Shown here piece by piece: positions 8,517-48,867 of a stretch of DNA of 64,000 nucleotides. The stretch's first letter is position 1. Each line of letters begins with the position of its first letter. This stretch comes from Candidatus Saccharicenans sp. (GTDB taxonomy: Bacteria > Acidobacteriota > Aminicenantia > Aminicenantales > Saccharicenantaceae): the NCBI GenBank assembly GCA_024653215.1, contig JANLFU010000001.1:269492-333491 (forward strand). The letters run 5' to 3'. The notes beneath the pieces were generated by a model. That model was not told the DNA's origin and searched no databases. It saw nothing but the letters and a program-made list of their open reading frames with translations. The position numbers were made by a program, and so were the translations under genes.

Positions 8517-9416
8517 CTAAATCTTGAGAAACCGCGAGACCGAGGTGACACTGCCCAGGGTTCCGGTAATCACTCCGCCGGCCACCAGCCAGAGGCCCTG
8601 TTCGGTCGTCAGCGGCCGCAGGGTGAACAGCTCCCGGGCTGCCCCGAGGGAACTGCCGATGTAGATGGGAAAGACCTTTATCAGGATGAACAGTATGAAC
8701 AGCGACACCAGGCTGCCCAGCAGTCCCAGAACGAATCCTTCCAGCAAGAACGGAATTCTTATGAAGGTGTTGGTGGCCCCGACCAGCCGGAGAATTTCTA
8801 TCTCGTTTTTCCTGGCGAAAACGTTCAGCCTGACCACGTTGGAGATTATGAAAAAAGAGGCCAGGATCAGGATGCCACCCAGGAAAAAGCCCACGGCCTG
8901 AACAATCCGGCTGAGGGAGTCCATCTTTTCCACCCAGTCCTGGTTGAACTGGACGTCGATTACACCTTTCAGTCCTTTTATTTTTTCCATGAAGTAGACG
9001 ATGGCCGACAGGCTCAGAATTTTATCTTTGAGCTTGACCTCGTAAGATGGAGGAAAGGGATTGGACTTGAGGTTATCCAGGATCTCCCGCAGCTCGGGGA
9101 AGTTGGCCCGGAAACGGCTCAGGGCATCTTCGGAAGAAACGAAGGTCACCCGGTCCACCAGTTCCGAGGCCAGGATCTGTGATTTGATGTACTCCAGCTC
9201 CGGAGCTTTCAGGTTCTTGTCCAGGAAGAAGGAAATGGCCAGGTTGTTTGATAGCTGCTGGCCAAGGTAGGTCAGGTTATTGGACAGGGCCAGGAAGATG
9301 CCTATTACCAGGAAAGAAAAGCCGATGATCAGGACTGAGACCAGGTTGCGGCCGCGGAAGGTCCACAGGTTGTTGCCCGCGGCCTTGACCAGGTACCAGA
9401 GTTGCCTGAAGATCAC
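8517..9416 (-). CDS. ftsX: Cell division ABC transporter permease FtsX
   Basis: Four-TM FtsX-like topology with a large periplasmic loop; GTG start overlapping the ftsE stop (GTGA). Confidence 0.8.
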   Translation of the reverse strand: MIFRQLWYLVKAAGNNLWTFRGRNLVSVLIIGFSFLVIGIFLALSNNLTYLGQQLSNNLAISFFLDKNLKAPELEYIKSQILASELVDRVTFVSSEDALSRFRANFPELREILDNLKSNPFPPSYEVKLKDKILSLSAIVYFMEKIKGLKGVIDVQFNQDWVEKMDSLSRIVQAVGFFLGGILILASFFIISNVVRLNVFARKNEIEILRLVGATNTFIRIPFLLEGFVLGLLGSLVSLFILFILIKVFPIYIGSSLGAARELFTLRPLTTEQGLWLVAGGVITGTLGSVTSVSRFLKI

Positions 9417-10081
9417 TGTTTTTCTTCCTTGCCGATGATTTTGCCCTTCTGTAAGAAAAAGATCTTATCACCGAAATGACGGATGAGCTCCCGGTCGTGG
9501 CTGCCGATGATGACCGTGGCTCCCTGCTGGTTGATTTCCTTGAAGATGCTCATGATCTCGAAGGCCAGCTCGGGATCTAGGTTGCCGGTCGGTTCGTCGG
9601 CCAGCAGGATGGAAGGGTTGTTAACGATGGCCCGGGCAATGGCCACCCGCTGCTGCTCGCCGTAGGACAGGCGCTGGGGAAAGTCCCACATCTTGTGATG
9701 CAGGTTGACCTGGCGCAGGGCATTGAACACCCGTCGCCTGATTTCCTTGGATGACAGCCCGATAACCTGCAGGGGCACGGCCACGTTGTGAAACACGGAC
9801 TGGTGGAAAAGCAGCCGGAAATCCTGAAAGACGATGCCCATGGTGCGGCGGAGCCGGTAAATCTTATGGTCCGGTATTTTAAGGATGTTAACTCCATCGA
9901 CTAAAATCTGTCCCTCGGTCGGGATGAGCTCGCGGAAGATGATTTTCAACAGGGTGGTCTTACCGGAGCCGCTCGGCCCGGTGATGAAACAGAACTCCCC
10001 GGTTCTGATTTCCAGGGAAATGTCGGACAGGGCCCAGTGCGGTTTCTGGTACTGCTTCCAGACGTGAAATAATTCAATCAT
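9413..10081 (-). CDS. ftsE: Cell division ATP-binding protein FtsE
   Basis: Walker A (GPSGSGKTT), ABC signature (LSYGEQQRVAIARA) and Walker B (ILLADEP) motifs. Confidence 0.9.
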   Translation of the reverse strand: MIELFHVWKQYQKPHWALSDISLEIRTGEFCFITGPSGSGKTTLLKIIFRELIPTEGQILVDGVNILKIPDHKIYRLRRTMGIVFQDFRLLFHQSVFHNVAVPLQVIGLSSKEIRRRVFNALRQVNLHHKMWDFPQRLSYGEQQRVAIARAIVNNPSILLADEPTGNLDPELAFEIMSIFKEINQQGATVIIGSHDRELIRHFGDKIFFLQKGKIIGKEEKQ

Positions 10082-10097
10082 CTGCTGGCATCAGCTT

Positions 10098-11612
10098 CTA
10101 TTTTTTGGCCAGCTTATCCAGGGCCTGGCGCAGCAGGGGTTGCACCCTCTGCGGGTCGGCCTGGCCCTTACTGGCCTTCATCACCTGGCCCAGCAGGAAT
10201 CCCAGGACCTGGACCTTGCCTTCCAGGTATTGTTTTACCGGGCCGGGATTCTTCTCCAGGACCTCTTCTATTATATTCTGCAGGGCCTGTTCGTCGCCGA
10301 TCTTTTTCAAACCGAGTTGCTCGGTGATAACCCGGGGATCGCAAGCGGCTAGTTTTTCTTCAATAGTCGGGACGGGCACCTCCACTGATTTCGGCACTTC
10401 CAGAGATCTCCTGAGCATCTCCGGGAAGACTTTTTCCTTGGCCATGGTTATGGTTATTTCCTGGTTCTCAACCATTTTAATCAACTCGGCCAGGGATTCG
10501 GCCGGAAGCGGGAAGTTTTCCGGGGTCAGGTTTTTTTCCTTGAGATATTGCAAGACCTCGCGCATTATCCAGTTTGAGGCCTGCTTGGGGGAGCCGGAGA
10601 GACTGGCCACCTTCTCAAAATAATCGGCCAGGGCCCGGCTTCCGGTCAGAATCCGGGCATCATAGGCAGGAAGCTGGTAATCCCTGATAAACCGGTCGAT
10701 TTTGGCCTGGGGAAGCTCCGGCAGCCCGGCTGAAATTTCCTTTATCCAGTCTTCGGAGATGATGAGCGGCGGCAGGTCGGGCTCGGGAAAGTAGCGGTAG
10801 TCATGGGCTTCTTCCTTGCTGCGCTGCGGAACCGTCCGGTTGGCCGAAGCATCCCAGCCCCTGGTCTCCTGGATTATCTTTTCGCCTCTCTCCAGGGCCT
10901 CAATCTGGCGGCTGGCCTCGTATTCCAGGGCCCGGGCCAGGAAGCGGAAAGAATTCAGGTTCTTGACCTCGGTCTTGGTTCCGAATTCAGTTGAACCTGC
11001 CGGCCTGACCGACAGATTGGCGTCACAGCGCAGGCTGCCCTCTTCCATGTTGCCGTCACAGATTTCCAGGTACTGGAGAATGGTCCTTAAGTTCTGGACA
11101 AACTCGACCGCTTCTTCCGGCGAGCGCAGGTCGGGCCGGCCGACAATTTCCAGCAGCGGAACGCCGCAGCGGTTGAAATCAAGGTAGGTCTTTTCGGCCG
11201 AATCGGGGAAGCCCTCGTGAAGCGATTTCCCGGCGTCTTCTTCCAGGTTTATCCTCTCGATTCCTATGGCCTTCCTGCTCCCGTTGACTTCGATCAGCAA
11301 CCGGCCGTCTTCGGCCACCGGCAGGTGATACTGGGTAATCTGGTAGCCCTTGGGCAGGTCCGGGTAAAAATAATTCTTGCGGCTGAAGATCGATTTCAGA
11401 TTGATTTTTGCCTCCAGGGCCAGGGCCAGCTTGATGGCCATCCGGACCGCTTCCCGGTTGATGACCGGCAGGCTGCCCGGCAGGCCCAGGCAGACCGGGC
11501 AGGTCAGGGTGTTGGGGGTCTGACCGAATTCGGTGCTGCACCGGCAGAAGAGCTTGGTCCTGGTCAGAAGCTGGGCGTGGATTTCCAGGCCGATGACGGT
11601 TTCGTATTTCAT
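10098..11612 (-). CDS. gatB: Asp/Glu-tRNA(Asn/Gln) amidotransferase subunit B
   Basis: MKYETVIGLEIHAQL...CRCSTEF...CPVCLGLPG is the GatB N-terminal signature; length matches. Confidence 0.95.
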   Translation of the reverse strand: MKYETVIGLEIHAQLLTRTKLFCRCSTEFGQTPNTLTCPVCLGLPGSLPVINREAVRMAIKLALALEAKINLKSIFSRKNYFYPDLPKGYQITQYHLPVAEDGRLLIEVNGSRKAIGIERINLEEDAGKSLHEGFPDSAEKTYLDFNRCGVPLLEIVGRPDLRSPEEAVEFVQNLRTILQYLEICDGNMEEGSLRCDANLSVRPAGSTEFGTKTEVKNLNSFRFLARALEYEASRQIEALERGEKIIQETRGWDASANRTVPQRSKEEAHDYRYFPEPDLPPLIISEDWIKEISAGLPELPQAKIDRFIRDYQLPAYDARILTGSRALADYFEKVASLSGSPKQASNWIMREVLQYLKEKNLTPENFPLPAESLAELIKMVENQEITITMAKEKVFPEMLRRSLEVPKSVEVPVPTIEEKLAACDPRVITEQLGLKKIGDEQALQNIIEEVLEKNPGPVKQYLEGKVQVLGFLLGQVMKASKGQADPQRVQPLLRQALDKLAKK

Positions 11613-11631
11613 GGTCGATTAAAGGAAATTG

Positions 11632-11659
11632 ATTATAACACAATTCATTTTGTGGCCAA
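11632..11659 (-). promoter_or_regulatory. Promoter for gatB, with a consensus -10 box
   Basis: Minus strand reads TTGGCC, a 16-bp spacer, then TATAAT; the leader is short. Confidence 0.35.
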
Positions 11660-11716
11660 AAGATTTATGGTCAGGCAGAAGGTGGTGAAATCAGGTATGT
11701 GTTTAGTCGACTGGTC

Positions 11717-11895
11717 TATTTGACAAAAAGGTACATGAACCAGCCGAAGGCCAGGGAAGCCAGGGTCATTATCAGGAACAGGGTCAGGCCGTAGCGGAGC
11801 CGGCTCTTCAGGTCGGGACGGCGGATCAGGGCCAGCACCAGAGACACTAAGAAGGCGTAGATAATCATGGTGAAGAGGTGACTTTCCAGGATCAT
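11717..11895 (-). CDS. Unannotated 58-aa two-helix hydrophobic small protein
   Basis: Manual translation gives MILESHLFTMIIYAFLVSLVLALIRRPDLKSRLRYGLTLFLIMTLASLAFGWFMYLFVK. Its ATG overlaps the stop of the upstream membrane-protein gene (ATGA at 11892-11895). At under 60 aa it is not in the ORF track. Confidence 0.3.
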
Positions 11896-12260
11896 TGTTT
11901 CTTTCCTCTGGCTATGTCCCAGGCATCCAGGGCCACCAGGTAGTTCAGCAGCCCGGCCCCGGCCAGGTAAGCCGTTCCAAATTCGAAGGATAGTCTTTCC
12001 AGTTCACCCAGGCCAACGGGCAGAAACCTGGAGAGGATATAAAGCAGCCCGTTCCCGAGGTCGGAGAGAAAGGCCAGGAAGGTCAGCGGGTTGTCTGCCT
12101 GCAGCGGATAAATCTTGCCCCCCATGACCAGGCCCATCAGGGACATCAGGGCGATGGCCACCAGAAAAGCCAGGCCCCGCCAGTAGCGGCGAAGGTAGAG
12201 ATGGCCCAGACCCGGAACAAGCCAGGCCAGAATGATTGCGGTAACGGCTTTCTTTTTCAT
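11892..12260 (-). CDS. Small integral membrane protein with a TM2-like GxGHxYxRR motif
   Basis: MKKKAVTAIILAWLVPGLGHLYLRRYWRG; three to four predicted helices. Confidence 0.5.
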   Translation of the reverse strand: MKKKAVTAIILAWLVPGLGHLYLRRYWRGLAFLVAIALMSLMGLVMGGKIYPLQADNPLTFLAFLSDLGNGLLYILSRFLPVGLGELERLSFEFGTAYLAGAGLLNYLVALDAWDIARGKKQ

Positions 12261-12371
12261 AAGGCTTAATATTAATTAAAATGAACCATTAAATCAAGCA
12301 GATTCACCCGAAAACTCTGCAGGCATATTGAGGGTCTTGGCTATTTTCAGCCGGGAAGGTAAAATCGATTC

Positions 12372-13199
12372 ATGCCCGAATTGCCCGAAGTTGAAACCGT
12401 GGTCAGCGGCCTGCGTTCCAGGCTGGAAGGTCGCCGGGTCAGGGACCTGGTCTTCCTGTCGGCCCACCTCGAACGAAAACAGCCCGCCTCTGCCCTCAAT
12501 CCCGTTATTTATCGCGGAAAAACGGTGCAGAAAATATGGCGTCGCGGGAAAATGATAATTTTCAGTTTTTCCGGCGGCTGCGGCCTGTTGATTCACCTCA
12601 AGATGACCGGGCAGCTTTACCTGTGCCCGCCGGAGCAACCACTGGATAAACATACCCATGCCCGGATGACCTTTTACGGGCTGGGCTCTGAGCTCCGCTT
12701 CCGCGATGTCAGAAAATTTGGTTTCTACAACTGTCTGCGGTTGCCGGAAATAATGAGCAGGGTCGAGGCTGAACTCGGGCCTGAACCGCTGGAGCTGGAC
12801 TTTCCAGAATTCCAGCATTTGCTGCAGAAGCATGGAGGCAAGAAAATCAAGGGCTGGCTGCTCGACCAGAAGATCATAGCCGGCATCGGCAACATATATT
12901 CTGACGAGATCCTGTTCCGGTCCGGAATAAGGCCAGACCGCCCGGCTGGCCGCTTGAGCCTGGTTGAAACCAGGAAACTGTACCGGGCCATGAAATCCGT
13001 CCTGAACAAGGCCATTGAGCTCAGGGGGTCATCCATCAGTGACTATGTTGATTCGGCGGGCGAGAAGGGCCAGTTCCAGCAGAAACACCTGGTCTATGAC
13101 CGGGAAGGCCAGCCCTGCCGACGCTGCCGGCAGGCAATTATTGAGAGAAAGAAGATAGCCGGCCGGAGTTCTTTTTTCTGCCCTTACTGCCAGAAGTGA
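12372..13199 (+). CDS. mutM: Formamidopyrimidine-DNA glycosylase
   Basis: Starts MPELPEVETV (catalytic Pro2 and Glu3); H2TH region; C-terminal zinc finger CRRC...CPYC. Confidence 0.9.
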   Translation: MPELPEVETVVSGLRSRLEGRRVRDLVFLSAHLERKQPASALNPVIYRGKTVQKIWRRGKMIIFSFSGGCGLLIHLKMTGQLYLCPPEQPLDKHTHARMTFYGLGSELRFRDVRKFGFYNCLRLPEIMSRVEAELGPEPLELDFPEFQHLLQKHGGKKIKGWLLDQKIIAGIGNIYSDEILFRSGIRPDRPAGRLSLVETRKLYRAMKSVLNKAIELRGSSISDYVDSAGEKGQFQQKHLVYDREGQPCRRCRQAIIERKKIAGRSSFFCPYCQK

Positions 13200-13229
13200 G
13201 CAATTAGGGCCCGGTCCGGCTCTCCCTGA

Positions 13230-13258
13230 TTGAAAAAATCGAGCTGATAAGTTATATT
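13230..13258 (+). promoter_or_regulatory. Near-consensus sigma70 promoter for tRNA-Arg(CCT)
   Basis: TTGAAA at 13230-13235, a 17-bp spacer, TATATT at 13253-13258; the mature tRNA 5' end is 18 nt downstream. Confidence 0.45.
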
Positions 13259-13275
13259 TAGCTCTTGCAAAGAAT

Positions 13276-13350
13276 GCCCCTGTAGCTCAGTATGGATAGA
13301 GCAAGGGATTCCTAATCCCTGTGCCGGGAGTTCGAGTCTCCCCAGGGGCA
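13276..13350 (+). tRNA. tRNA-Arg (anticodon CCT)
   Basis: Full cloverleaf: acceptor GCCCCTG/CAGGGGC, D-stem GCTC/GAGC, anticodon stem AGGGA/TCCCT with loop TTCCTAA, T-stem GGGAG/CTCCC with loop TTCGAGT; no encoded CCA. Confidence 0.85.
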
Positions 13351-13512
13351 TTTGGCTTCATCCGAAAGATGAGCCCAAAAGGGAAGGGTCAGGCAGGTTT
13401 GGTCCTCAGGGGGAGGTTCAGGGCGGGGCAGTCCAATCGCCGGTCAATAAGGGAAAAGTGCTGGCGGTTTTCGGCCCGGCCGAATGAGGGGAGCAGAAAT
13501 CATCTTTTAATT

Positions 13513-13526
13513 CACCTTGAAAGGTG
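13513..13526 (+). promoter_or_regulatory. Perfect palindrome CACCTT-GA-AAGGTG upstream of the orphan 435-aa gene; operator-like
   Basis: Exact 6-bp inverted repeat separated by 2 bp, about 65 nt upstream of ATG 13590; a GGTGA(A/T)A motif recurs at about 13556. Confidence 0.3.
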
Positions 13527-13589
13527 ATAAATTTATGGGCGGAATATTTTATTAAAGGGGTGAAATCGTAGATTTGAAAGGACCGAGCC

Positions 13590-14897
13590 ATGAACAGGGT
13601 CATCCTGCTGGATTTTGAGGATAGGGACAAGGAGTACCTGGAGCAGGAGCAGGTCGATACCTTTCTAATTCACACCTCCGATTTCAGGAATCTGCCGACC
13701 ATCCTGCCCGAGGCCAGGGCCATTTTTTATCAGCTCAACTGGCCGGTGGAGGAGGAGGCTGTTCCGGGCGGGCTGGCGGAGAAGGTCCAGGAAATGGTGG
13801 TGGATGGAGCCAGGGTGGTCTGCTTTGTCGGCAAGGGGCATCTTTACCAGCTGACCGGCGTTATCGGTACCTTCCCGGATATTCATTTTCAGGAATCGAC
13901 CCCGAACGAGGTGCTGCTGGTAACACCGGAAATGCCCTTCAACCTGGTTTTTGAGAAATTTTCCAGCAGCCTGGCCCATATTTACAAGCTGTTGCCCAAC
14001 TCTTTTGGCGCCGACATCTGGGAGGTCCCGGCCAGCCTGAACGAAAGCTGGAAAATTGTGGCCAAGAGCCATGATGGCTATCCGGTTTCCCTGATGATCA
14101 GGAAGGGAAAGGGCTTCATCTGGCTGCTGCCCTGGTTCGGTCAGCACAATATCAAGGTGGTTGATTTCATCCTGAAAGATGTTTTCCCGCTCATGGAAAT
14201 GAAAGGCAAGGAGGTGGAGCAGATGGACTGGATTGACAAGGAAGAATATCTTTTCCCGGAAATCAAGGAATTGTTCCTGAAGAAGGAAGAAGAGAAGAAG
14301 AAATTCGAGGAAAGGTTAAAGGAACTCGACGAACAGATCAGGACCCTGCGGGAAACCCAGCAGGAGGCCTTCAACCGCCTGCTCAAGGCCGAGGGCCCGG
14401 AACTGAAGGCGGCCGTCCTCCAGGCCTTCAAGTATCTGGGCTGGGCCAAGGTGGTGGATGTGGACCAGTACTGGAAGAACGTCATCAGGGACAAGGAGGA
14501 AGACCTGTGGCTCATCGAGAACAATGACCAGCCGGTGGAAGTTTGCCTGCGCAAGGAATTCCTGATACTGGTAGTCATCAGGAGCAGCCGCAACTGGGCT
14601 ACCGATGACGACTGCATCCTGCTGCAGAGGTTCAAGGGCCGCCGCATGCAGGAATTTGACAATACCAGGATGAAGGCCATCCTGGTCGGCAATTACTTCA
14701 ACCTGGTTGAGGCCAAGCTGCGGAACAATCCTTATTCCCAGTTCCAGGTGGAGGAAGCAGAAAAGGACGGGAACGGCCTGCTGACCACCTATGAACTCTT
14801 CCAGGTCATCAAGGCCGAGAAGGAAGGTCTCATCAGCAAAGAGGAAATCAGGAAGCAGATCAAGGAAAAGGCCGGACTGCTGAAGTTCAACTATTAA
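13590..14897 (+). CDS. Uncharacterised 435-aa protein: N-terminal globular domain, charged coiled-coil segment (KEEEKKKFEERLKELDEQIRTLRETQQ), C-terminal globular domain
   Basis: Clean ATG with AAAGGA about 8 nt upstream; no recognisable family motif; monocistronic, between tRNA-Arg and an AT-rich spacer. Confidence 0.6.
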   Translation: MNRVILLDFEDRDKEYLEQEQVDTFLIHTSDFRNLPTILPEARAIFYQLNWPVEEEAVPGGLAEKVQEMVVDGARVVCFVGKGHLYQLTGVIGTFPDIHFQESTPNEVLLVTPEMPFNLVFEKFSSSLAHIYKLLPNSFGADIWEVPASLNESWKIVAKSHDGYPVSLMIRKGKGFIWLLPWFGQHNIKVVDFILKDVFPLMEMKGKEVEQMDWIDKEEYLFPEIKELFLKKEEEKKKFEERLKELDEQIRTLRETQQEAFNRLLKAEGPELKAAVLQAFKYLGWAKVVDVDQYWKNVIRDKEEDLWLIENNDQPVEVCLRKEFLILVVIRSSRNWATDDDCILLQRFKGRRMQEFDNTRMKAILVGNYFNLVEAKLRNNPYSQFQVEEAEKDGNGLLTTYELFQVIKAEKEGLISKEEIRKQIKEKAGLLKFNY

Positions 14898-32723: not shown

Positions 32724-33587
32724 ATGACCAAGAGCGATCGCAAGATTGAACCATTCTGGGAAAAAGAACCAGTCCTTAAAGACGAAGAAATGTTTTCCGG
32801 GCTGGGACCGTCCCGGGGGTCGTTGCTCTTCCTCGGCCGTTATACCCTGAAGGAAGTCATGGCCGTTCTGGCCAAGAAAAGCTTTTTCCGGGAAGCCAGG
32901 AAAAAGAACCTCTGGCCGATTAAGTACCGGATGGACTCTTCCGATTACCCGGTGCAGAGGCTTCTTATTTACTGGGAGGAAGAACACCCGGACCGGATGA
33001 TCGTCGACCTAAAGATCAGGGAAGCCGAGGTCCGGTTTGCCGCCCCAAAAAAGCATGGCTACAGGTTGCCTCCCCAGCACTGCCTGCTGTTTGAGTGGCT
33101 GACCCTGCAGAACCCGCGCCTGAGCTTTGACGACAGACATCCGCCGCTTCCCGGGCAGAATAAACCCGGTCTCAGCCTTTCCAAGAAAATACTGGAAATT
33201 TTTCTGCACCTGGGCCGGCTGATCAACCTCGATGCCCTGGTGGCCTTTCCGGCTTACTTTCATAACGCCCTGCTCTTTTCGAGGTATTTTCAGTTCGTCG
33301 ACCCCATAAAACAGGGTGAAATCAAGGCCATCAGGAAGCAATTCAGCCATGTTCCTTTCAGGCAGCTGGCCTGGGCCGTCTACCTGGGATGCCTAAAGGA
33401 CGAGGATGGCCGGGTGTACGAATGGCAGGCCGAGGAACAGGTGGTGGCCCTGAGCGAAGACCTCAGAAACTACCTGGAATCAAGAGTTTACCGGGAGATA
33501 TCAAGACACGTGGAAAAAACTGCGGTCTTCAGCCTGGACTGGGACCTCTTCCAGCAGAAGTGCCAGGAACAGCGCATCCTTTACTGA
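32724..33587 (+). CDS. Hypothetical cytoplasmic protein, 287 aa
   Basis: Open frame with an ATG start; no motif recognised. Confidence 0.5.
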   Translation: MTKSDRKIEPFWEKEPVLKDEEMFSGLGPSRGSLLFLGRYTLKEVMAVLAKKSFFREARKKNLWPIKYRMDSSDYPVQRLLIYWEEEHPDRMIVDLKIREAEVRFAAPKKHGYRLPPQHCLLFEWLTLQNPRLSFDDRHPPLPGQNKPGLSLSKKILEIFLHLGRLINLDALVAFPAYFHNALLFSRYFQFVDPIKQGEIKAIRKQFSHVPFRQLAWAVYLGCLKDEDGRVYEWQAEEQVVALSEDLRNYLESRVYREISRHVEKTAVFSLDWDLFQQKCQEQRILY

Positions 33588-35815: not shown

Positions 35816-36943
35816 TTACTGAGGCTGCCTGTTTCTTCTGGCCAGCAGCCGGTGATAGTCCTCGAATGAGGGCAGCAGCTTGGTAGTTTCGAAACGGATT
35901 CTTTCCCAGCGGTCGATGTCCAGGGCACAGAAAGCTTCAACCACCACCGGGTCAAACTGGGTGCCGGAATTCTTGATGATTTCCTGCCGGGCGGTCAGGA
36001 AATCCTGTTCTGGCCGGTAGGGCCGGTGGGAGGTAATGGCATCCAGGGCGTCGGCCAGGGCGAAGATCCTGGCCTCCAGTGGAATTTCATCTTTCTTCAA
36101 CCCTCGCGGGTAACCCGTGCCGTCGTATTTCTCGTGATGATAAAGAATGATGTTGCCGACTTCCTTCAGCAGTTTCATTTCTTTTATCAGACCGTAGCCC
36201 AGTGTCGGATGCATCTTGATTTTTTCCCATTCTTCAGGCGTCAGTGGCCCGGGCTTCTTGAGGATGGAATCGGGGATGGCAATTTTCCCGATGTCGTGGA
36301 GCAGGGCCCCTTTCCTGATGTGGTCAAGGGTGGGCTGGTCCTTGAGGCCCAGGACCTCGGCCAGGACCTGGCTGTACTTGGAGACCGTGCGCGAATGTCC
36401 GAAGGTTTCCACGTCTCTCAGGTCCAGGGCGGTCATCAGGTTTTCCACCGTGGTGTCGTATATTTCTTCAAGTTCCAGAAGCTTGCGGATATGACGGGAT
36501 TGTTCCAGCTTGAGCTTGGTCAGGTTCCTCAGGTAGTACTCGTTTTCCTGCTTCAGTTGCCGCCGCTGGATTTCGGACCTCAGGGCCGAGAAGATGGCTG
36601 GAAGGTTATTCCGGGGACAGACAAAATCCAGAAGATTGTCCTCCAGTGGTTTCAGGAACTCGATGGCCTCAGCCGGGGGAGTCAGCAGTATCAGGCTCAA
36701 ACGCGGGTAGGACTTCTTCATTTGTTTGAGCCAAGCCGATATTTTCCGGCTATTAACCGACTCGCTGGAAAAAACCAGGATGGCATTTTTCAGGTTGTTG
36801 GTGGAAAGGTCAGGCAGGCCGGAGGTTTCCTCAAGCCCGACCTGTAACTGGCCGCAGAGTTCAACCAGCTGCCGCCGCAGCCTGCCCTCGGGAATAGCCA
36901 GAATGATTTTCAGGTGATGGTTATGGTTAGCTCCGCCGCTCAT
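35816..36943 (-). CDS. HD-GYP c-di-GMP phosphodiesterase with an N-terminal degenerate receiver-like domain
   Basis: LLHDIGK (HD) and HHEKYDGTGYPRGL (GYP) motifs; the N-terminal roughly 150 aa is REC-like without a clear phospho-acceptor context. Confidence 0.8.
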   Translation of the reverse strand: MSGGANHNHHLKIILAIPEGRLRRQLVELCGQLQVGLEETSGLPDLSTNNLKNAILVFSSESVNSRKISAWLKQMKKSYPRLSLILLTPPAEAIEFLKPLEDNLLDFVCPRNNLPAIFSALRSEIQRRQLKQENEYYLRNLTKLKLEQSRHIRKLLELEEIYDTTVENLMTALDLRDVETFGHSRTVSKYSQVLAEVLGLKDQPTLDHIRKGALLHDIGKIAIPDSILKKPGPLTPEEWEKIKMHPTLGYGLIKEMKLLKEVGNIILYHHEKYDGTGYPRGLKKDEIPLEARIFALADALDAITSHRPYRPEQDFLTARQEIIKNSGTQFDPVVVEAFCALDIDRWERIRFETTKLLPSFEDYHRLLARRNRQPQ

Positions 36944-37152
36944 ATTTACTTAATCCTGTATACATCAAATCTGAACTCAAGGCAAGTGTTTTTGAAAAAA
37001 TTGCCGTTAAATTGTTCTGGTTTCTGACAGCCAGACAGACCGACCCGCGGCCGGCGGGGTGATTTTTTGGCTTCCGGCTCGCCGCTGGTGGTTAATTCCT
37101 TTCCCCCCGGCCGATAGAATAATTCCCCGACAGGCTCACCCGCTTTTATCCT

Positions 37153-37181
37153 TGACAGGCGAATCGGGTTGATTTTAGAAT
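37153..37181 (+). promoter_or_regulatory. Sigma70-type promoter for the coiled-coil gene
   Basis: TTGACA at 37153-37158, a 17-bp spacer, TAGAAT at 37176-37181. Confidence 0.4.
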
Positions 37182-37220
37182 AGCCTTGCCAGGGCCGAAT
37201 AACAGGCAAAGGAACGGGCA

Positions 37221-38528
37221 ATGAATGAAGACAGCCACTTGATAAAAAAACCTGTATCCATCATCCAGGAAATCGAGAATCAACTGGAAGACTATCTCCG
37301 CCGGCAGAGGGAAGAAATTGAAAAATCCCTTGAAGAGAGAATTCAAAAGGAGAGAGAACTGGCCAGGCAGCAGCTGGCCGAGATTGAGCAGGCAGTTAAA
37401 AGGGAATGGCTGGCCCTGGAAGAGTATGGCCGGGTCTGGGAGCAATTTGAAGACAGAAGGCAGGAAATTCTTAGAAAAATCAAAGAGTGCCTGGAAAGAA
37501 TTGCTGACCGGCAGCAGGAAATTGAAAAACTCACCCGGGCCACTTCCGAGGATGTTCGGGCCATAAGTCAGCTGCACGAGGAACTGGAAGAGCTAAGGCG
37601 GCAGTCGCTGGAACAGGCCGAAGTTCTTAAGAAAGGACTGGAGGAGAAATTCGGACTGAGGGCTGAAATACCGAGGCCGGCAGAAGCGGAAAGGCCGGAA
37701 CTGGACCTGACGCCTGAGCTGGAAAAGCTACGTAAAGTCAAGGAACTTCTGCTGCTGGAAAGCGGGATAACCCAACCCCAGCCATCCAAAGAAGCGGAAG
37801 AGCAGGTCGGCCAGGCGGTGGAAACGGTTGAACCGCAACCAGCGGTGGAGCCGGTGACCGAGCCGGAGAAACCGGAGGAAGCCAGGCCCTTCACCGTAAC
37901 TGAAGAAGTAGCAGAGCCTACCCTGGAAGATAAACTGGCTGAAGAGATCAGGAAGACCATAGCCGGCCGGCTGGAATCCTTGCAGGCCGAGGGAACGGGA
38001 GAGGTGGCTTCTACCGCGCCCTCTGCCGAGAGCCTGGAGATGATCACCAGGAAAGACCTGGAAGAATTTTACCGGGAAGAGCCGGCCAACGGCTCCAGCC
38101 CGATCGGCTTTTACCAGAAGGGCAAGAAAAACATACTGGAAGCAGAAGAATTATTGACCAGGCTGAGGGAAGCGATCGAGGAGGCCCGTAAATTGAATTA
38201 CAAGATGGCCTTTGTCACCGCGGCCAAGGAGCAATTTTATCTGAAACAGGAAATCATCAGCCTGCAGGAGGGTATAAGGCGGTACCTGCTTCGGGTTGTC
38301 TTTCTGGCTAACAAGAAAAATTTCCGCTTTCCGGCCCTGACCCAGGATATCCTGAACCAGCAGGTGCTGGAAGAGCTTTCCGACCAGCTGGCGGTTCAGA
38401 ACTGGAGTTCGGCTGATGACCTGTCTCGCTTCGAGCAGAGAATAATCGACCTGACCGCTTCCTTTAAGGCCAGGACCACCCCGGCCTCAATTTACTACGG
38501 TGCCCTGAAAAAAGAACTGGAAGCCTGA
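37221..38528 (+). CDS. Long coiled-coil protein (E/R/Q/L-rich) with a C-terminal globular region; unknown function
   Basis: AAAGGAACGGGCA then ATG; heptad-rich N-terminal half, a Pro/Glu-rich linker, and a C-terminal roughly 150 aa of higher complexity. Confidence 0.5.
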   Translation: MNEDSHLIKKPVSIIQEIENQLEDYLRRQREEIEKSLEERIQKERELARQQLAEIEQAVKREWLALEEYGRVWEQFEDRRQEILRKIKECLERIADRQQEIEKLTRATSEDVRAISQLHEELEELRRQSLEQAEVLKKGLEEKFGLRAEIPRPAEAERPELDLTPELEKLRKVKELLLLESGITQPQPSKEAEEQVGQAVETVEPQPAVEPVTEPEKPEEARPFTVTEEVAEPTLEDKLAEEIRKTIAGRLESLQAEGTGEVASTAPSAESLEMITRKDLEEFYREEPANGSSPIGFYQKGKKNILEAEELLTRLREAIEEARKLNYKMAFVTAAKEQFYLKQEIISLQEGIRRYLLRVVFLANKKNFRFPALTQDILNQQVLEELSDQLAVQNWSSADDLSRFEQRIIDLTASFKARTTPASIYYGALKKELEA

Positions 38529-38552
38529 AGATAAGGGCCGGTCCCCCCGCCA

Positions 38553-40571
38553 TCAATTAAACGTTTCCTTCTGAACCTCTTTGAAATAATTCTCCAGGAC
38601 CTGGAAATCGTCTCCGCTTAGTTCCTTAAATCTCAGGCCGGTGTAAAAAGTGCCGGCATCAGGGCTGGCCTTTTCCGAATAGACCACCTCTCCCTTCAGC
38701 GGGTGGGCTTTCTTGCCCAGAATCAGGATGACATCCATAGTCCGGGAGGCGGGCAGGGGTCTCTCCGAGAGAACCTTGGCTCCCCCCAGGCTGAGGTTGA
38801 TGGTCTTGCAGACCCGCAGCTGGCCGTCGTCCCGGTACATCATGATGGTGGACGTGTAATGCCGCTGGAAATGGCGTTTTTCGCGGAACAGCTTTTCCTG
38901 GTAGGTGACCGTCGGGCGGAGATGGTTTTCTCTTTCCCAGTCGCGGGAATAGGCCACCACCGTGTTCTTGGTGGCCGGCCTGGTTTGCGCCTCCGAGGGT
39001 GGCAGGCGCCAGGTTTCCTTTCCCTTGGCTTCGGCCAGGGCCAGGTCGCATTCGTGCACCAGGTGTTTCAGGTCTTCCCGGGTCAGCTGGCCATCGTCTT
39101 CTATTTTCTTGCGGGGGAAGACGGTGACCCCGAAGGACATGGTCAGGTTGTTCCGGGGCTGAAACTCTTCGTAGGGGAAATAGTGGTCTTCGATGTTCTT
39201 CCTGATTCTTTCGGTGAGCAGGCAGGCTTCTTCCAGGGTGGTGACCCCGCTCAGGAAGAACAGAAATTCTTCGCCCCCGTATCGGCAGATCAAATCATTT
39301 TCCCGGACCGATTGCTTCAGGATCGAGGCCAGTTCCTGCAACAGCCGGTTGCCGGCTTCATGGCCGTTGCGGTCGTTGTAATGCTTGAACCAGTCCACGT
39401 CGCCCATGACCATGGCGAAGGCCCCTTCTTCGATTTTTCTCTTGCTCATGGAGTTAACTTTCTGGAGGATGCGGTCGAAGAAGGGTTCGGCCCGCAGCAG
39501 CCCGGTCAGGGCGTCGTATTGAATCAGGTTGAGCTTGGTCATGGCGATGCCGATGTGTTCCGACAGCCCCCTCAGGATCTGCTGGTCTTCGCGGCTGAAG
39601 CCCTCCGGCAACGGGCTGTCCATAAAATGCTTGTTATAGAGTTCGATAACTCCGATGACCTGTTCTTCGTAGGTGATGGGCACGGCCAGGATGCTCTTCA
39701 AGGGGAACTTCAGGTTGTGCTGGTAGCGCAGCGAAAAGCGCTTGTCGTAGGTCAGGTCGCTGATGTTGACTTCCTGCCCGTGGCGGGCCACGGCCGCGGC
39801 AAAATCAGGGGCTTCCAGCCGGGCCACGTACTTGAAAGTTTCCGGGTGGGTGATGAAGGTATCGTCCCAGATGATGGGTTTCAGGTGCTTGCCCAGGGTC
39901 TCACTTTCTTCTATCAGGTAGATGGTCAGGCCCTGGGCCTGGAGCAGGTCTTTAATATCCGGGACCACACCCAGCAGGCTGCTGACGTCGTTGGCTGAAT
40001 AGATTTTGCGGACGATGTTTTCGATTTTCCATCTTTCCCGCTGGGACCAGACATAGCGGGCTTCCAGGGAAATTCTTCTTTCCAGCTCCCGCAGGTAATT
40101 CTCGTTGATTAACCTTTTAATTTCGGCAATTTCCTTGAAGACCTCCCGGGCGCTGGCCGAGTTCAGGGCCACGGTCTGCTGCAGCTGGGCCCACTCCCTT
40201 TTTATCCGGCTGTGATGGATGGCGATTTTAAGGATCTGGCCCAGGATCGGTTCCAAAGGTTGATTCTCTGTTTCCAGGACGTATTCCAGGTGATGGTGAG
40301 CCGGCCAGGTCAGCAGGCTCCGGTAGACTTCGGTTTCATCCCGTCCCAGGATGATAACCGAGCAATCCGGGCTGATGATGTCCTTCCAGCGGTCGTAATC
40401 GGCCGAACCGGAGTCGATAATGGCCGCCCAGCAATCATAGTTTTTTAAGAGCGGAGGGACCTCGTCAAAAGAATTGGCCACCACCGGCAGGTATTCTTTT
40501 TCGCAGAGCCGGACCACCTTCAGGGCCTGTTCGACACTGGAAACATAGACCAGAATATTTATCTGCGCCAT
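38553..40571 (-). CDS. Diguanylate cyclase with REC-like N-terminus, GAF domain, GGDEF domain (active, with I-site) and a C-terminal PilZ domain
   Basis: RENDLICRYGGEEF holds the I-site RxxD and an active GGEEF. The C-terminus has RHFQR (RxxxR) and NLSLGG (D/NxSxGG), which are PilZ signatures. Confidence 0.8.
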   Translation of the reverse strand: MAQINILVYVSSVEQALKVVRLCEKEYLPVVANSFDEVPPLLKNYDCWAAIIDSGSADYDRWKDIISPDCSVIILGRDETEVYRSLLTWPAHHHLEYVLETENQPLEPILGQILKIAIHHSRIKREWAQLQQTVALNSASAREVFKEIAEIKRLINENYLRELERRISLEARYVWSQRERWKIENIVRKIYSANDVSSLLGVVPDIKDLLQAQGLTIYLIEESETLGKHLKPIIWDDTFITHPETFKYVARLEAPDFAAAVARHGQEVNISDLTYDKRFSLRYQHNLKFPLKSILAVPITYEEQVIGVIELYNKHFMDSPLPEGFSREDQQILRGLSEHIGIAMTKLNLIQYDALTGLLRAEPFFDRILQKVNSMSKRKIEEGAFAMVMGDVDWFKHYNDRNGHEAGNRLLQELASILKQSVRENDLICRYGGEEFLFFLSGVTTLEEACLLTERIRKNIEDHYFPYEEFQPRNNLTMSFGVTVFPRKKIEDDGQLTREDLKHLVHECDLALAEAKGKETWRLPPSEAQTRPATKNTVVAYSRDWERENHLRPTVTYQEKLFREKRHFQRHYTSTIMMYRDDGQLRVCKTINLSLGGAKVLSERPLPASRTMDVILILGKKAHPLKGEVVYSEKASPDAGTFYTGLRFKELSGDDFQVLENYFKEVQKETFN

Positions 40572-44676: not shown

Positions 44677-47600
44677 TCAGGTTAATTCAGCTTTCTTTTT
44701 CCTGTACCTGGTCTTGACCTGTTCCACGAAAGCCTCCAGCCGGCTCCGGGTGCTGACCGTTTCGGTTTCGCCGTAAACCAGGGTGGGCAGGGGCAGGTTG
44801 CCAAAATCTTTTTTAATCCTCCGGGAGATGGCGGCCGAGGTGGTGCCCAGCATGCAGTTGAAGCAGATGACGTTGATGATGCCGTCGGCTCCCCGGCGGG
44901 CCAGGTCCACCATCCTGGCCACGTTCAGGAAAAGGCTCTGGTTGTTATTGTAATTAAGGTAGGCCAGGGTGGAGCGCAGGAGCTCTTCAAAGCGTGGTTC
45001 TTTAAGTTTCAGTTCCGAAAACTCCAGTTTCTTCCTGACCTGGGCCAGGTTGATCTCCCGGACCAGGTTCAGCCCGGCATACTTGACAGTTTCCAGCAGG
45101 TTACCCTCGGACAGCTTTTCGTAGAAGCCGCGGCTGAAGCTGAAGTCGATTTCATCCACCAGGAAGGGCGAGGGCCAGACTTCGCAGCCAAGTTCTTCCA
45201 GCTGTTCAAACAGCCGGTTGTTGGCAAATGAGTTCTGGCGGGTATAGATGTCCCCGGCGATTCCGATCAGTGGCCTTTCCTCCGGGCAAACCTTGATCTG
45301 ACTGAAGCTGGACCTGATTTTTTCCAGGGCCTCAGCCAGGCGGTCTGAGGCCAGTCCCTCTTCAATCAGCTTCAGGCCTTCCTGGAAAGCCCGGTTGACT
45401 TCACCCCGCTTGACCTCGTAAGGCCTGAGCTGGCAGGAGATTCTGGTCAGGTGGTCCACGGCCACCAGGCCCTGGTAAAGGGCCTTCAGGCCATCAAAGC
45501 CGATTAACTGCCAGAAATAATCAAGGGTCGGGGTCAGCAGCAGGACCCGCTGATTATCAAGTTCATGGAGCAGCTGGCGCATGGCCGGGCCGTACTGCTG
45601 CAACAAGCAGGAATATCTGGCCCCGGGGAAAAAGAAAATGAGTGGCTCGGCGGGTTTTTCGTCCAGGGTCAATTTCAGCAGGTCTCCCAGGAGGAAGGAA
45701 TAAGCGTGGCACTCCTTGCCCGAAGAATACTTTTCACCCAGTTCCAGGCTGCGCTCGTCGGGCGGGGGCAGGACCTCGGCCCGCAGGCCTGACTTTTTTA
45801 GAGCTCCGGCAAAGGCCCGGGCGTGGTCGGCAAAGTAGGGAAGGACGAACGGAATTTTTTTGACCCGTTCCACCGGCCAGGTTTCCGGGTTTTCTGCCTT
45901 TTTCAGCCTGGCGGCCGGGCGGTTTCCGGCGCGGTGCTGGCTGACCTCATCGTCGAAGGCTTCCAGCCTGGTAATCAGCCCGGCTTCTCCCCGGTGTTCG
46001 TCAAACTCGAGAAAGAGATGGGGGATGCTCTCCACCAGGCTCTTACACTGTTTCAGACAGAAGGCATCCGGCCCGCAGCCGTAAAATGAAAGAAAAACCG
46101 GATAGACGCCATGATGTTTTCTCGACCAGGCCGCGGCCTCAAGCATTTTCCTTGGATATCTCCAGGGCGGCACGGCCGAGCCTTCCAGGATTTCTCCGGC
46201 CAGCTCGACATCTTCCAGCTCCAGGTAATCCGCCGGGATGGCGATCAGTTTCAATTTTTCCAGGTGTGACCAGAAATTCAGGTTGACAAAGCTATCGTAG
46301 AGCAGGTAGGGACGCCCGGAAATCAACCAGACCGGTCTTTTGCTCTGAAAACTCCTTTTGAGCAACTGCTGGCCCTGCTCTTTAAGTTTCCGGTCGAATT
46401 CCATCTGGACCTGCCAGGCCTCGGTCCAGGCCCGGGCAATTGTCTCTTCGGGTTCCTTTAGAAGGCCGGCCAGGTTCTGCCAGCTCAATTTCTGGCTGTC
46501 TTCAACCGGTTCCAGGTAGACGGAGGTGGTCAGCAATTTTTCCCTGACTGTTTCGGGAATCATATGGGGCAGGTTCTCGGTATAGGGGCAAAAATAGAAA
46601 GATTCTCTTCGGTTCTGATGCCGGTCGACCAGGCTGGGCAGGAAGACCAGGTCCACCTCCGGGTCATCCTGCAGGAACTTAAGATGACCGATGGCCACTT
46701 TAACCGGCAGGCAGGTCTCGGCCGGCTGGAGTTTTATTCCAGCCTCCATGATTTCAGGACTGGTTTCGGGGGAAACCTTGACTCTGTAACCGAGCCGGGA
46801 AAAGAAGGCCAGCCAGAAAGGCAGAAATTCCAGGAAAACAGAGGCCCGGGGCAAACCGATGGTCGGGCCCTCAGCCGGTTTCTGAAGTTTAAAGTCGTCC
46901 AGCAGTTTTTTTCTGAAGGCCAGGGGGTTATGCCCATCGGCAGATGATAGCTCCAGGCGCGAGTCCGAAGTGTAGCGTTCGCAGATGTCGCCGAAATAGA
47001 CCCGTTCCTGGCCTGACTCCACCGCCACCACCTGGCAGCGGTTGGCACAATGTCGGCACTCGAAATGGGTCAGCTTGAAGGATTGAAAAAGCTGGTTTCT
47101 GATGTCGTCCAGGCCTAATGACTTCTTGCCCGATTTCCTGACCACCTCCCTAGCTTCCAGGGCCGCGCCGATGGCCCCGGAAATCCGGTGGTAGGGATGA
47201 ACCTTGATTTCCTTTCCCAGCAGGATGGAAAATGCTCTGACCACGGCCTGGTTGGAAGCCACCCCGCCCTGGAAAACTATGTTCTGACCGATGGGTCTTC
47301 TTTCCACCACCTTTTCCAGGTAATTCCGGGCAATAGAATAGGCCAGGCCGGCTACCAGGTCGGGCAGGGGCTGTCCCCGGGCGGCCTCGTTCAGAAGCTC
47401 TGATTCCATGAAGACGGTGCAGCGGCTGCCCAGGTCGGAAGGCTGCCGTGAAACCGAAGCCAGAACGGCAAAATCTTTCTCTACCCGGAAACCCATCTGG
47501 GCGGCCTGTTCTTCCAGAAAGGAACCGGTCCCGGCAGCACAGATCTTGTTCAAATTAAAATCGACCACCCGGCCGTTATCGACCTGAATGTACTTGGAGT

Positions 47601-48867
47601 CCTGACCTCCGATCTCAAAGATGGTATCGACTTCCGGAAAATAGTAACAGGCGCTGCGCATCTGGCAGGTTATCTCGTTCTTGATGAGGTCAGCCCGCAG
47701 CAACCGCCCGACCAGGTAGCGGCCGCTGCCGGTAGTACCTATGCCCAGGATTTCCAGCCCGGCCGGGAACCTGGAGAAAAGTTCCAGAAGTCCTTCCTTC
47801 AGCACCTCGAGTGGCCGGCCCCTGGTTGGCAGGTAGACTCCGCTCAGAACCTGGCTGGCTTCATCGACAATGACCAGATTGGTGCTGACCGAACCTATGT
47901 CAATTCCCAGGTATCCCCGGGCGGGGAAGTTTACCCTGTCCACGGGTTCGGAAGCCGGGCTGGCCCGGAGCTCCCCCAGCGGCTGCAGGCTGGAAAACTT
48001 GTGGTCAGCTGTCGGCCGGATTCTACCAGGAAGGTCTTCAGCGGTCAGGAAGCGTTTCTCCTCTTTCCTGGCGATGACCAGGCTGGCCGCTCCGATGGCC
48101 GGAAGATACGGTGATAAATCTGAATACAGCAGCCTTTCCGGACCGGCTTTTAAGACTTCCTGGAAGGCCCTGAGGACGCCGGCATTCTTGATGATGTTGC
48201 CGGCCAGGACCAGCGGCCAGGAAATATCCTTTCCCTTGAGCAGGGAAGAAGTCACCGATCTGACCAGGGCCAGGCAGACACCGTAAGCGATCTCTTCGGC
48301 CGGGGTGCCCTTCTGCTGGAGGTGAATCATGTCCGACTTGGCGAAGACACTGCAACGACCGGCAATGGTCGCTCCCTTCCTGGCCCGGGCGGCCAGGGAA
48401 GAAAAATCTTCTATCGACAGGCGCAATCGGTAGGCCTGCTGTTCCAGAAAGAGTCCAGTGCCGGCGGCGCATCTTTCATTGAGGGCGAAATCAACCACTT
48501 CCGGGAAGATGTCTCCGGCGGAGACTTTCCCCAGTTCCAGCCAGCGGGAACTTTCGGCCCCGATGTCAAAAACCGACCTGGCCCCGGGAAAAACCAGCCC
48601 GACCCCGGCGGCCAGGGCTGAAATCTCGTTGACCTTGAAAACCTCACCCGGGAAATCCAGACTGTTCCGGCCAGCCCCGGTGGCTGAGATTAGAAGTTTC
48701 TGGCCCGAGAGCGTAGATAGGTTTCGGCGGAGGATGGTCTCCAGGGCTGAGAAGAAATTGCCTTTGACCTCCTGGCTGTCCCTGAATATAAGCTGTCGCT
48801 GAGGGGAAAGAACCACCAGCTTTACCGATTGGACCCCGAGGTCAAGTCCCACGGCCAGGAAGCTCAT
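44677..48867 (-). CDS. 1396-aa fusion protein: two BadF/BcrA/HgdC-type (ASKHA-fold) ATPase 'activase' modules plus HgdB/BcrC-like dehydratase/reductase-type modules (CoA-substrate-specific enzyme activase family)
   Basis: N-terminal VGLDLGVQSVK and second GIDIGSVSTN ASKHA phosphate-1 motifs; ICAAGTGSFLEEQA-type cluster-bridging Cys; the remaining roughly 900 aa is Cys-containing alpha/beta. Confidence 0.7.
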   Translation of the reverse strand: MSFLAVGLDLGVQSVKLVVLSPQRQLIFRDSQEVKGNFFSALETILRRNLSTLSGQKLLISATGAGRNSLDFPGEVFKVNEISALAAGVGLVFPGARSVFDIGAESSRWLELGKVSAGDIFPEVVDFALNERCAAGTGLFLEQQAYRLRLSIEDFSSLAARARKGATIAGRCSVFAKSDMIHLQQKGTPAEEIAYGVCLALVRSVTSSLLKGKDISWPLVLAGNIIKNAGVLRAFQEVLKAGPERLLYSDLSPYLPAIGAASLVIARKEEKRFLTAEDLPGRIRPTADHKFSSLQPLGELRASPASEPVDRVNFPARGYLGIDIGSVSTNLVIVDEASQVLSGVYLPTRGRPLEVLKEGLLELFSRFPAGLEILGIGTTGSGRYLVGRLLRADLIKNEITCQMRSACYYFPEVDTIFEIGGQDSKYIQVDNGRVVDFNLNKICAAGTGSFLEEQAAQMGFRVEKDFAVLASVSRQPSDLGSRCTVFMESELLNEAARGQPLPDLVAGLAYSIARNYLEKVVERRPIGQNIVFQGGVASNQAVVRAFSILLGKEIKVHPYHRISGAIGAALEAREVVRKSGKKSLGLDDIRNQLFQSFKLTHFECRHCANRCQVVAVESGQERVYFGDICERYTSDSRLELSSADGHNPLAFRKKLLDDFKLQKPAEGPTIGLPRASVFLEFLPFWLAFFSRLGYRVKVSPETSPEIMEAGIKLQPAETCLPVKVAIGHLKFLQDDPEVDLVFLPSLVDRHQNRRESFYFCPYTENLPHMIPETVREKLLTTSVYLEPVEDSQKLSWQNLAGLLKEPEETIARAWTEAWQVQMEFDRKLKEQGQQLLKRSFQSKRPVWLISGRPYLLYDSFVNLNFWSHLEKLKLIAIPADYLELEDVELAGEILEGSAVPPWRYPRKMLEAAAWSRKHHGVYPVFLSFYGCGPDAFCLKQCKSLVESIPHLFLEFDEHRGEAGLITRLEAFDDEVSQHRAGNRPAARLKKAENPETWPVERVKKIPFVLPYFADHARAFAGALKKSGLRAEVLPPPDERSLELGEKYSSGKECHAYSFLLGDLLKLTLDEKPAEPLIFFFPGARYSCLLQQYGPAMRQLLHELDNQRVLLLTPTLDYFWQLIGFDGLKALYQGLVAVDHLTRISCQLRPYEVKRGEVNRAFQEGLKLIEEGLASDRLAEALEKIRSSFSQIKVCPEERPLIGIAGDIYTRQNSFANNRLFEQLEELGCEVWPSPFLVDEIDFSFSRGFYEKLSEGNLLETVKYAGLNLVREINLAQVRKKLEFSELKLKEPRFEELLRSTLAYLNYNNNQSLFLNVARMVDLARRGADGIINVICFNCMLGTTSAAISRRIKKDFGNLPLPTLVYGETETVSTRSRLEAFVEQVKTRYRKKKAELT

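Follow-up and report, generated by a model that had tools for sequence, protein, structure and literature searches.

Do three neighbouring genes of Candidatus Saccharicenans, coding for a GGDEF-type cyclase that carries its own PilZ domain, a phosphodiesterase of the HD-GYP family and a helical protein placed between them, constitute a single signaling system, and which nucleotide would such a system use? The genes lie at positions 35816-40571 of a DNA stretch of 64,000 nucleotides (nt), here called the window, whose numbering is used for all coordinates. An earlier note on this DNA had described them as a compact trio, and the positions that it gave for the open reading frames (ORFs; 375, 435 and 672 amino acids, aa) were borne out exactly by the ORF listing. 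The public record names the 672-aa protein 'diguanylate cyclase' and the 435-aa protein 'hypothetical'. A protein of Candidatus Saccharicenans subterraneus BY38 shares 99% identity with the cyclase. The Aminicenantes, the lineage concerned, are uncultured, and in the literature searched we found no paper that links them with cyclic di-GMP (c-di-GMP). With moderate confidence we favor the reading that the three genes form a self-contained cyclic-dinucleotide module, most probably one for c-di-GMP, which has been kept together across the Aminicenantes. The genes are:

35816..36943, minus strand: predicted HD-GYP phosphodiesterase, 375 aa, with an N-terminal pseudo-receiver (Pfam HD_5, 1e-39; 60/62 loci)
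37221..38528, plus strand: lineage-specific protein of 435 aa, consisting of a long helix, an acidic linker and a four-helix bundle (ORF; AlphaFold2, AF2; conserved position)
38553..40571, minus strand: predicted cyclase, 672 aa, with pseudo-receiver, coiled-coil, GAF, GGDEF and PilZ regions (ORF; Pfam; orthologues of the same length and architecture across the Aminicenantes)

The domains that the earlier note had named from the letters were found by Pfam in both enzymes. In the 672-aa protein, GAF matched residues 205-344 (4e-13), GGDEF residues 351-517 (8e-29; 100.9 bits with a cut-off of 23.8) and PilZ residues 564-663 (2.4e-10; 41.1 bits with a cut-off of 22.5), and the NCBIfam model TIGR00254 recognized its diguanylate cyclase domain with 105.4 bits; in the 375-aa protein, HD_5 matched. 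The AF2 model of the cyclase, which is a soluble protein, runs from five beta-alpha units through a helix of about 87 residues to the GAF and GGDEF domains; a disordered linker then leads to the PilZ domain, modelled as a barrel of six strands with a final helix. The parts of both enzymes are as follows:

40257..40571, minus strand: pseudo-receiver of the cyclase, residues 1-105 (AF2 fold; hhalign against the N-terminus of the HD-GYP protein)
39996..40256, minus strand: long helical linker, residues 106-192, from pseudo-receiver to GAF (a single helix in AF2)
39528..39995, minus strand: GAF domain, residues 193-348, cyclic-nucleotide-binding type, with the motif NK..F...DQ (Pfam; similarity to PDE5/PDE2)
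39012..39521, minus strand: GGDEF catalytic domain, residues 351-520 (Pfam, 8e-29; aligns with WspR, PleD and GacA)
39264..39305, minus strand: I-site REND (423-426) and active-site RYGGEEF (430-436) (translation; invariant in orthologues)
38562..38882, minus strand: C-terminal PilZ domain, residues 564-670, with RHFQR and NLSLGG (Pfam; invariant motifs; AF2)
36569..36943, minus strand: pseudo-receiver of the HD-GYP protein, residues 1-125 (hhalign against CheY)
35921..36436, minus strand: HD-GYP catalytic domain, residues 170-341, with HDIGK, HHEKYDGTGYP and RPYR (motif positions; 69 orthologues)

We judged the invariance of the cyclase motifs in an alignment of 20 orthologues of 47-87% identity. 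The catalytic residues of the GGDEF domain do not vary in this set: the DxD motif (D391-V-D393), K396, N399, R430, GGEEF (432-436), K516 and K518. The I-site REND lies six residues ahead of the GG pair, as in PleD, and its R423 and D426 are invariant, as are RHFQR (566-570) and NLSLGG (592-597) of the PilZ domain. These latter segments (R566-HFQ-R570 and N592-L-S-L-G-G597) conform to the refined PilZ binding motifs RxxxR and [D/N]hSxxG (bioRxiv 10.1101/814665). In the AF2 model, six strands within residues 576-649 are followed by a helix (653-670), with per-residue confidence values (pLDDT) of 80-90; no solved PilZ chain matched this domain at the sequence level at E-values up to 1. The GGEEF, RxxD, RxxxR and NxSxGG signatures on which the earlier note relied are hence all present in the translation, the C-terminal domain does match the PilZ model, and the GGDEF motif is not degenerate. 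The closest solved relatives of the GAF domain are the cGMP-type GAF domains of PDE5 and PDE2 (E 1e-10), and its residues N313 K314 ... F325 ... D329 Q330 align with the NKFDE motif of PDE5, Gln replacing the last Glu. By similarity, this GAF domain would be of the cyclic-nucleotide-binding type, and its ligand is probably a cyclic mononucleotide.

The 375-aa protein carries HDIGK at residues 216-220, HHEKYDGTGYP at 269-279 and RPYR at 307-310, all conserved in 69 orthologues. Its closest solved relatives are V-cGAP3 (6e-37) and PmGH (5e-36), and R307-P-Y-R310 aligns with 'RPYK' of PmGH, whose R314..K317 is the guanine-reading pair. In HD-GYP enzymes, Rxx(K/R) marks the c-di-GMP type and RxxQ the type acting on cyclic GMP-AMP (cGAMP) (bioRxiv 10.1101/600031). 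All metal-binding, GYP and Rxx(K/R) residues of c-di-GMP phosphodiesterases can be assigned in the translated sequence. The elements by which the two enzymes would read and erase the signal (RxxD, RxxxR together with [D/N]hSxxG, and RPYR) are thus of the c-di-GMP type throughout (motif rules: bioRxiv 10.1101/814665, 10.1101/600031).

The 'REC-like' domain that the earlier note had noticed in the cyclase is recovered in the AF2 model as a (beta-alpha)5 fold (residues 5-105, pLDDT about 90), although the N-terminus of neither enzyme matched a Pfam family at E-values up to 10 (the first 130 residues in the case of the cyclase). Across the 20 orthologues it has no acidic pair (the consensus is N-P-N), D53 is near-invariant, and an invariant W89-P90 replaces K-P. 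A profile of the HD-GYP N-terminus aligned with CheY over 106 columns (hhalign; probability 73%, E 3e-5); Ser stands for the phospho-acceptor D57, Cys for K109, and the acidic pair is again lacking. The HD_5 match and this alignment without the phospho-acceptor Asp uphold the description of the protein as an HD-GYP phosphodiesterase with a pseudo-receiver, a domain that is missing from about a quarter of the 69 orthologues compared. The cyclase profile gave no direct match to CheY in hhalign. It did align with the N-terminus of the HD-GYP protein over 123 columns (probability 86%, E 4.7e-6), a relation that is insignificant in BLASTP and visible only by profile-profile comparison. This match indicates that both enzymes bear the same kind of degenerate receiver and, judged from residues and model together, both N-termini are predicted to be pseudo-receivers incompetent for phosphorylation.

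Substrate-selecting residues and the probable product

In strict producers of c-di-GMP, a conserved Asp (D344 in PleD) contacts the Watson-Crick edge of guanine (PMC9140294, PMC6456294), and a cross-dimer Arg that stacks on the base, part of an 'NRR' segment, occurs in 94% of predicted cyclases (PMC6456294). Both positions are altered in the Saccharicenans enzyme:

39348..39350, minus strand: codon AAC for Asn408, at the position of base selection (D344 in PleD, Ser in Hypr GGDEFs) (alignment; 81/81 orthologues)
39483..39500, minus strand: LLRAEP, residues 358-363, replacing the canonical 'xNRRx' with its cross-dimer Arg (alignment against WspR 'LSNRR-H')

The segment 'GHEAGN', which contains Asn408, aligns with 'GHVAGD' of WspR and 'GHLVGS' of the Hypr enzyme GacA. 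Asn occupies the guanine-selecting position in 81/81 cyclase orthologues, and in all 81 the 'NRR' segment reads LLR[PAGST][ED][PA]; the cross-dimer Arg is missing, the Arg of the LLR segment being two to three residues out of register with it. A metagenome sample drawn with the motif FKxxNDxxGHxxG[N/D] gave 122 matches in the 120 DNA stretches returned. Every match (122/122) had Asp at the selectivity position and none (0/122) had Asn, which, as far as a small, unweighted sample goes, puts the frequency of Asn there below a few per cent. The window and the 80 related loci that we compared (fetched from species-representative genomes, all Aminicenantes) contain no other GGDEF genes for an in-lineage comparison, and the literature searched yielded no biochemistry of enzymes with Asn at the selectivity position. 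Since Asn stands in for the guanine-selecting Asp and the Arg of 'NRR' has been lost, c-di-GMP is the probable, not the certain, product of the cyclase. The earlier claim of an active GGEEF cyclase fused to its own PilZ receptor therefore stands as far as motifs and domains are concerned, whereas the c-di-GMP product had been assumed.

It is possible, though unlikely, that the protein is not a strict diguanylate cyclase at all. It would then use both GTP and ATP, yielding 3',3'-cGAMP or a different or mixed dinucleotide, with the I-site and PilZ domain sensing c-di-GMP of other cyclases (a cross-talk as in GacB), and Asn with GGEEF would represent a second route to Hypr-like promiscuity. Asn408 can give or take a hydrogen bond, and the Arg that stacks on guanine is lost. 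The contrast between the fixed Asn of the orthologues and the metagenome sample, and the replacement of 'NRR' by R-x-[ED]-P, would fit such a change, since the product of Hypr GGDEFs, which make cGAMP, is set by changes at these same two positions (PMC6456294, PMC9140294). Asn is as long as Asp, which we infer makes it compatible with GGEEF on the published 'Goldilocks' distance argument. GacB and PmxA already exemplify the pairing of a GAF-Hypr-GGDEF synthase and an HD-GYP eraser (bioRxiv 10.1101/600031), and V-cGAP3, the best solved relative of the 375-aa protein, is named a cGAMP phosphodiesterase. However, the Hypr definition comprises Ser/Thr at the selectivity position and GGDE[F/Y] exclusively (PMC6456294), and the Aminicenantes family differs in both respects, with Asn408 instead of Ser/Thr and GGEEF instead of GGDE[F/Y]. 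The RPYR segment of the HD-GYP protein is of the c-di-GMP type, unlike the RxxQ of the cGAMP-specific PmxA, and the PilZ domain and I-site of the cyclase are canonical binders of c-di-GMP.

We think it improbable as well that the Aminicenantes possess a previously unrecognised GGDEF specificity class, characterized by Asn, GGEEF and the lack of a stacking Arg, which would make a dinucleotide beyond or instead of c-di-GMP; the fused PilZ domain and the I-site would let outside c-di-GMP gate the synthesis, and the helical protein would be a dedicated effector or scaffold. If the product were not pure c-di-GMP, hybrid dinucleotides would be made in nature by a second route, and the family would caution against giving the name 'diguanylate cyclase' to all GGEEF proteins, as the public record has done for this one. 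The invariant exchange of Asp for Asn, together with the lost stacking Arg, provides a sharp test of the rules of substrate choice in GGDEF domains.

Linkage of the three genes and a proposed mechanism

The protein encoded between the two enzymes matched no Pfam or NCBIfam family. In its AF2 model, a helix of 134 residues is followed by a disordered, acidic linker and then by a bundle of four helices at the C-terminus:

37251..37652, plus strand: continuous helix, residues 11-144, with a conserved N-terminal block (AF2, pLDDT mostly >90)
37767..38048, plus strand: variable linker, residues 183-276, rich in Glu, Pro, Ala and Thr (AF2; alignment; composition)
38049..38525, plus strand: conserved C-terminal domain, residues 277-435, a beta-hairpin and a helical bundle

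The linker varies in length and sequence across homologues; its pLDDT falls below 50 at residues 183-232 and 256-271, and a short helix (235-256) is predicted in between. When 1.84 billion representative proteins were searched with a profile of the middle protein, 226 clusters only were returned, which points to a small, lineage-restricted family. In two assemblies, frameshifts split the middle gene (L018, 2403-3615; L026, 9015-12343).

Among the related loci that extend far enough, the middle gene adjoins the cyclase gene on the opposite strand in 79 of 80, partial and frameshifted copies included, and the HD-GYP gene comes next in 60/62. Full-length homologues of the middle protein were detected by phmmer with E-values from 1e-262 to 1e-46, and independent gene calls revealed the same trio around three distant homologues. 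The genes outside the trio keep their places less firmly: prmC is a direct neighbour in 33/53 loci, hutU in 41/67 and gltX in 24/67. On one contig (L205) the trio stands amid a cellulase gene, an ABC transporter gene and a flavodoxin-like gene instead of prmC/prfA. Because the trio persists where its flanks change, its linkage is tighter than general synteny explains, although it is not absolute. These adjacency counts and variable flanks support the earlier proposal that the three genes be regarded as one unit.

The adjacency might instead reflect gene order inherited in a lineage that rearranges slowly, the two enzymes feeding a general pool and the middle protein having an unrelated role, for instance a structural one. 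The alternating strands and separate promoters are in keeping with this, as are the often conserved order of hutU, prmC, prfA and a 287-aa ORF and the lack of a c-di-GMP-related feature in the middle protein. We consider it quite unlikely, given that the trio outlasts its flanks (33/53 for prmC against 60/62 for the HD-GYP gene, with wholly different neighbours on L205), that a family with so few homologues adjoins the cyclase in nearly all loci, and that both enzymes bear related pseudo-receivers.

In the three-gene module that we favor, a GAF ligand, probably a cyclic mononucleotide, would together with the pseudo-receiver set the geometry of a helical dimer and thereby switch the pair of GGDEF domains on. 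The product would act on the same polypeptide at the I-site, as a non-competitive product inhibitor, and the loaded PilZ domain would either hold the GGDEF domains apart, providing a second feedback, or alter a surface for a partner. The best candidate for this partner, or for a scaffold, would be the middle protein, and the HD-GYP enzyme would reset the signal. Because their pseudo-receivers are related, cyclase and phosphodiesterase probably share the same input or the same docking partner.

Several points speak against the module as proposed. With Asn408 and the loss of the cross-dimer Arg, the residues of the active site do not assure strict diguanylate cyclase activity. The genes are not one operon, as their strands alternate. 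Physical contact among the three proteins is a proposal, and no nucleotide-binding or PilZ-binding feature could be recognized in the middle protein. The region is fairly syntenic in the lineage, and inheritance of gene order could account for some of the linkage. The partnership can also be broken: at one locus (L042) the cyclase gene occurs without the other two genes and is followed by genes for NTP_transf_5, a methyltransferase, an ABC transporter and a radical SAM protein (9060-14441), and at another (L009) the middle gene has been kept and the HD-GYP gene lost (10400-10810).

That the GGDEF domain has mainly a docking or receptor function without catalysis, and that the whole protein is a c-di-GMP-responsive scaffold, is very unlikely: the non-canonical base-binding residues, the two sites of the c-di-GMP type (I-site and PilZ) and the GGDEF partners of Xanthomonas RpfG, which control motility without enzymatic activity (PMC3749722), would agree with it, but all catalytic residues are invariant at 47-100% identity, which is unexpected for a dead enzyme.

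Comparison with known systems

The closest functional precedent comes from Xanthomonas campestris, in which HD-GYP, GGDEF and PilZ proteins, namely RpfG (REC-HD-GYP), XC_0249/XC_0420 (GGDEF) and XC_2249 (PilZ), form one complex (PMC3749722). The same three domain types recur in the Saccharicenans trio, its HD-GYP enzyme also has a receiver-type domain at the N-terminus, and the HD-GYP protein's GYP motif and the DxD motif of the GGDEF protein, which the RpfG complex requires (PMC3749722), are both present. Unlike in the RpfG system, the GGDEF and PilZ domains of the trio are joined in one polypeptide, the genes are adjacent, and a helical protein is added. Neither receiver of the trio has phosphorylation residues, no kinase gene is found near the trio, and no pilus genes occur in its neighbourhood.

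With PleD and WspR the cyclase shares GGEEF, an I-site at the same spacing, a receiver fold at the N-terminus and a helical linker; it differs from them in having a pseudo-receiver in place of a receiver, extra GAF and PilZ domains, Asn for the guanine-selecting Asp, and no 'NRR' Arg. For this deviation of the active site, the Hypr GGDEFs and the PmxA system are the closest precedent. The synthases GacA of Geobacter, GacB of Myxococcus and Bd0367 of Bdellovibrio deviate at the same two positions (PMC6456294), and GacB, a GAF-GGDEF protein with a c-di-GMP-binding I-site, is inhibited by c-di-GMP and is paired with the HD-GYP eraser PmxA (bioRxiv 10.1101/600031). In contrast to the Hypr enzymes, with their Ser/Thr and GGDEF, the trio cyclase has Asn, GGEEF and a fused PilZ domain. 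The cross-dimer residue is acidic or Pro in the trio cyclase and Tyr, Ser, Ala or Gln in Hypr enzymes, and the HD-GYP protein of the trio has RxxR where PmxA has RxxQ.

Lcd1 of Leptospira and GacB of Myxococcus are GAF-GGDEF cyclases activated by cyclic AMP, according to work cited in bioRxiv 10.1101/600031. As in these proteins, the GAF domain of the trio cyclase directly precedes GGDEF, and it keeps NK..F...D of the NKFDE motif; it differs from them by the added pseudo-receiver and PilZ domain and by Gln, instead of Glu, as the last residue of the motif.

The fusion of GGDEF and PilZ that the earlier note described is present here. It is not new in itself, given that a PilZ-GGDEF fusion was listed by Amikam and Galperin in 2006, as cited by Galperin and Chou (bioRxiv 10.1101/814665), and that a downstream PilZ motif was found in 1/108 complete GGDEF ORFs of our metagenome sample. 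An ORF of about 1400 codons on the metagenome contig L191, unrelated to the cyclase, in which a PilZ-like RxxxR...NxSxxG segment comes after a GGDEF domain having the canonical Asp, is an independent example of the fusion. Compared with the catalogued fusions, the trio cyclase has in addition a constant gene neighbourhood and a variant of the active site. The term 'GGDEF-PilZ' yielded no paper in the literature searched, and we found there no functional study of this architecture, although it has been catalogued for twenty years. What appears to be new at this locus is the invariant Asn/GGEEF active site combined with a conserved partner gene, GGDEF-PilZ fusions and complexes that unite HD-GYP, GGDEF and PilZ proteins being already known. 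The trio would thus offer a compact, soluble and genetically fixed system in which to study the role of a PilZ domain fused to the cyclase that presumably feeds it, and the genomic context gives a clear handle on the role of the middle protein family.

Intergenic sequences and neighbouring genes

The earlier note had called the middle gene divergently transcribed. This is correct with respect to the HD-GYP gene and incorrect with respect to the cyclase gene, to which it is convergent, the two stop codons being 24 nt apart. We found no terminator-like hairpin between these convergent genes (38526-38555), and at one related locus (L201) their ORFs overlap by 4 nt; the two transcripts may overlap, which would permit antisense interference. 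The near-consensus promoter that had been proposed for the middle gene is upheld:

37152..37181, plus strand: sigma-70-type promoter of the middle gene, TTGACA-18-TAGAAT (11/12 match; 16/16 loci)

With its score of 11/12 it is the best sigma-70-like site in the region, and all aligned Saccharicenans loci (16/16) preserve CTTGACA, TA(G/A)AAT and the ribosome-binding site. An extra CTCACC at 37135-37140 lies just upstream of its -35 box.

The promoter scan of the region revealed no sigma-70-like site for the HD-GYP gene. A perfect palindrome, TGTATACA, is located at 36957-36964, 14-21 nt upstream of the start codon of this gene (36943, minus strand); it is exact in 11/16 of the aligned Saccharicenans loci and one base off in two more, and may serve as an operator or belong to an unusual promoter. 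Between the divergent genes, an inverted repeat GGGGTGA-N17-19-TCACCCC (37056-37090) is clear in five of the related loci (L013, L014, L016, L019 and L020). It is degenerate in the window, where a GC hairpin with a T-run (37044-37068) overlaps it, and it may be the binding site of a regulator. An Rfam scan of the whole window for a c-di-GMP or cGAMP riboswitch gave two tRNAs only.

On one side the trio has prfA and prmC as neighbours, on the other gltX and hutU. The GC content is uniform along the window, and there is therefore no sign of a foreign island. A 287-aa ORF without a Pfam match (32724-33587, plus strand) lies next to prfA in most related loci, where its identity is 45-100%. A second 435-aa ORF (13590-14897, plus strand), which belongs to no Pfam family, is unrelated in position to the trio. 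A protein of 1396 aa (44677-48867, minus strand) consists of two BcrAD/BadFG ATPase regions and two DUF2229 (CoA-enzyme activase) regions.

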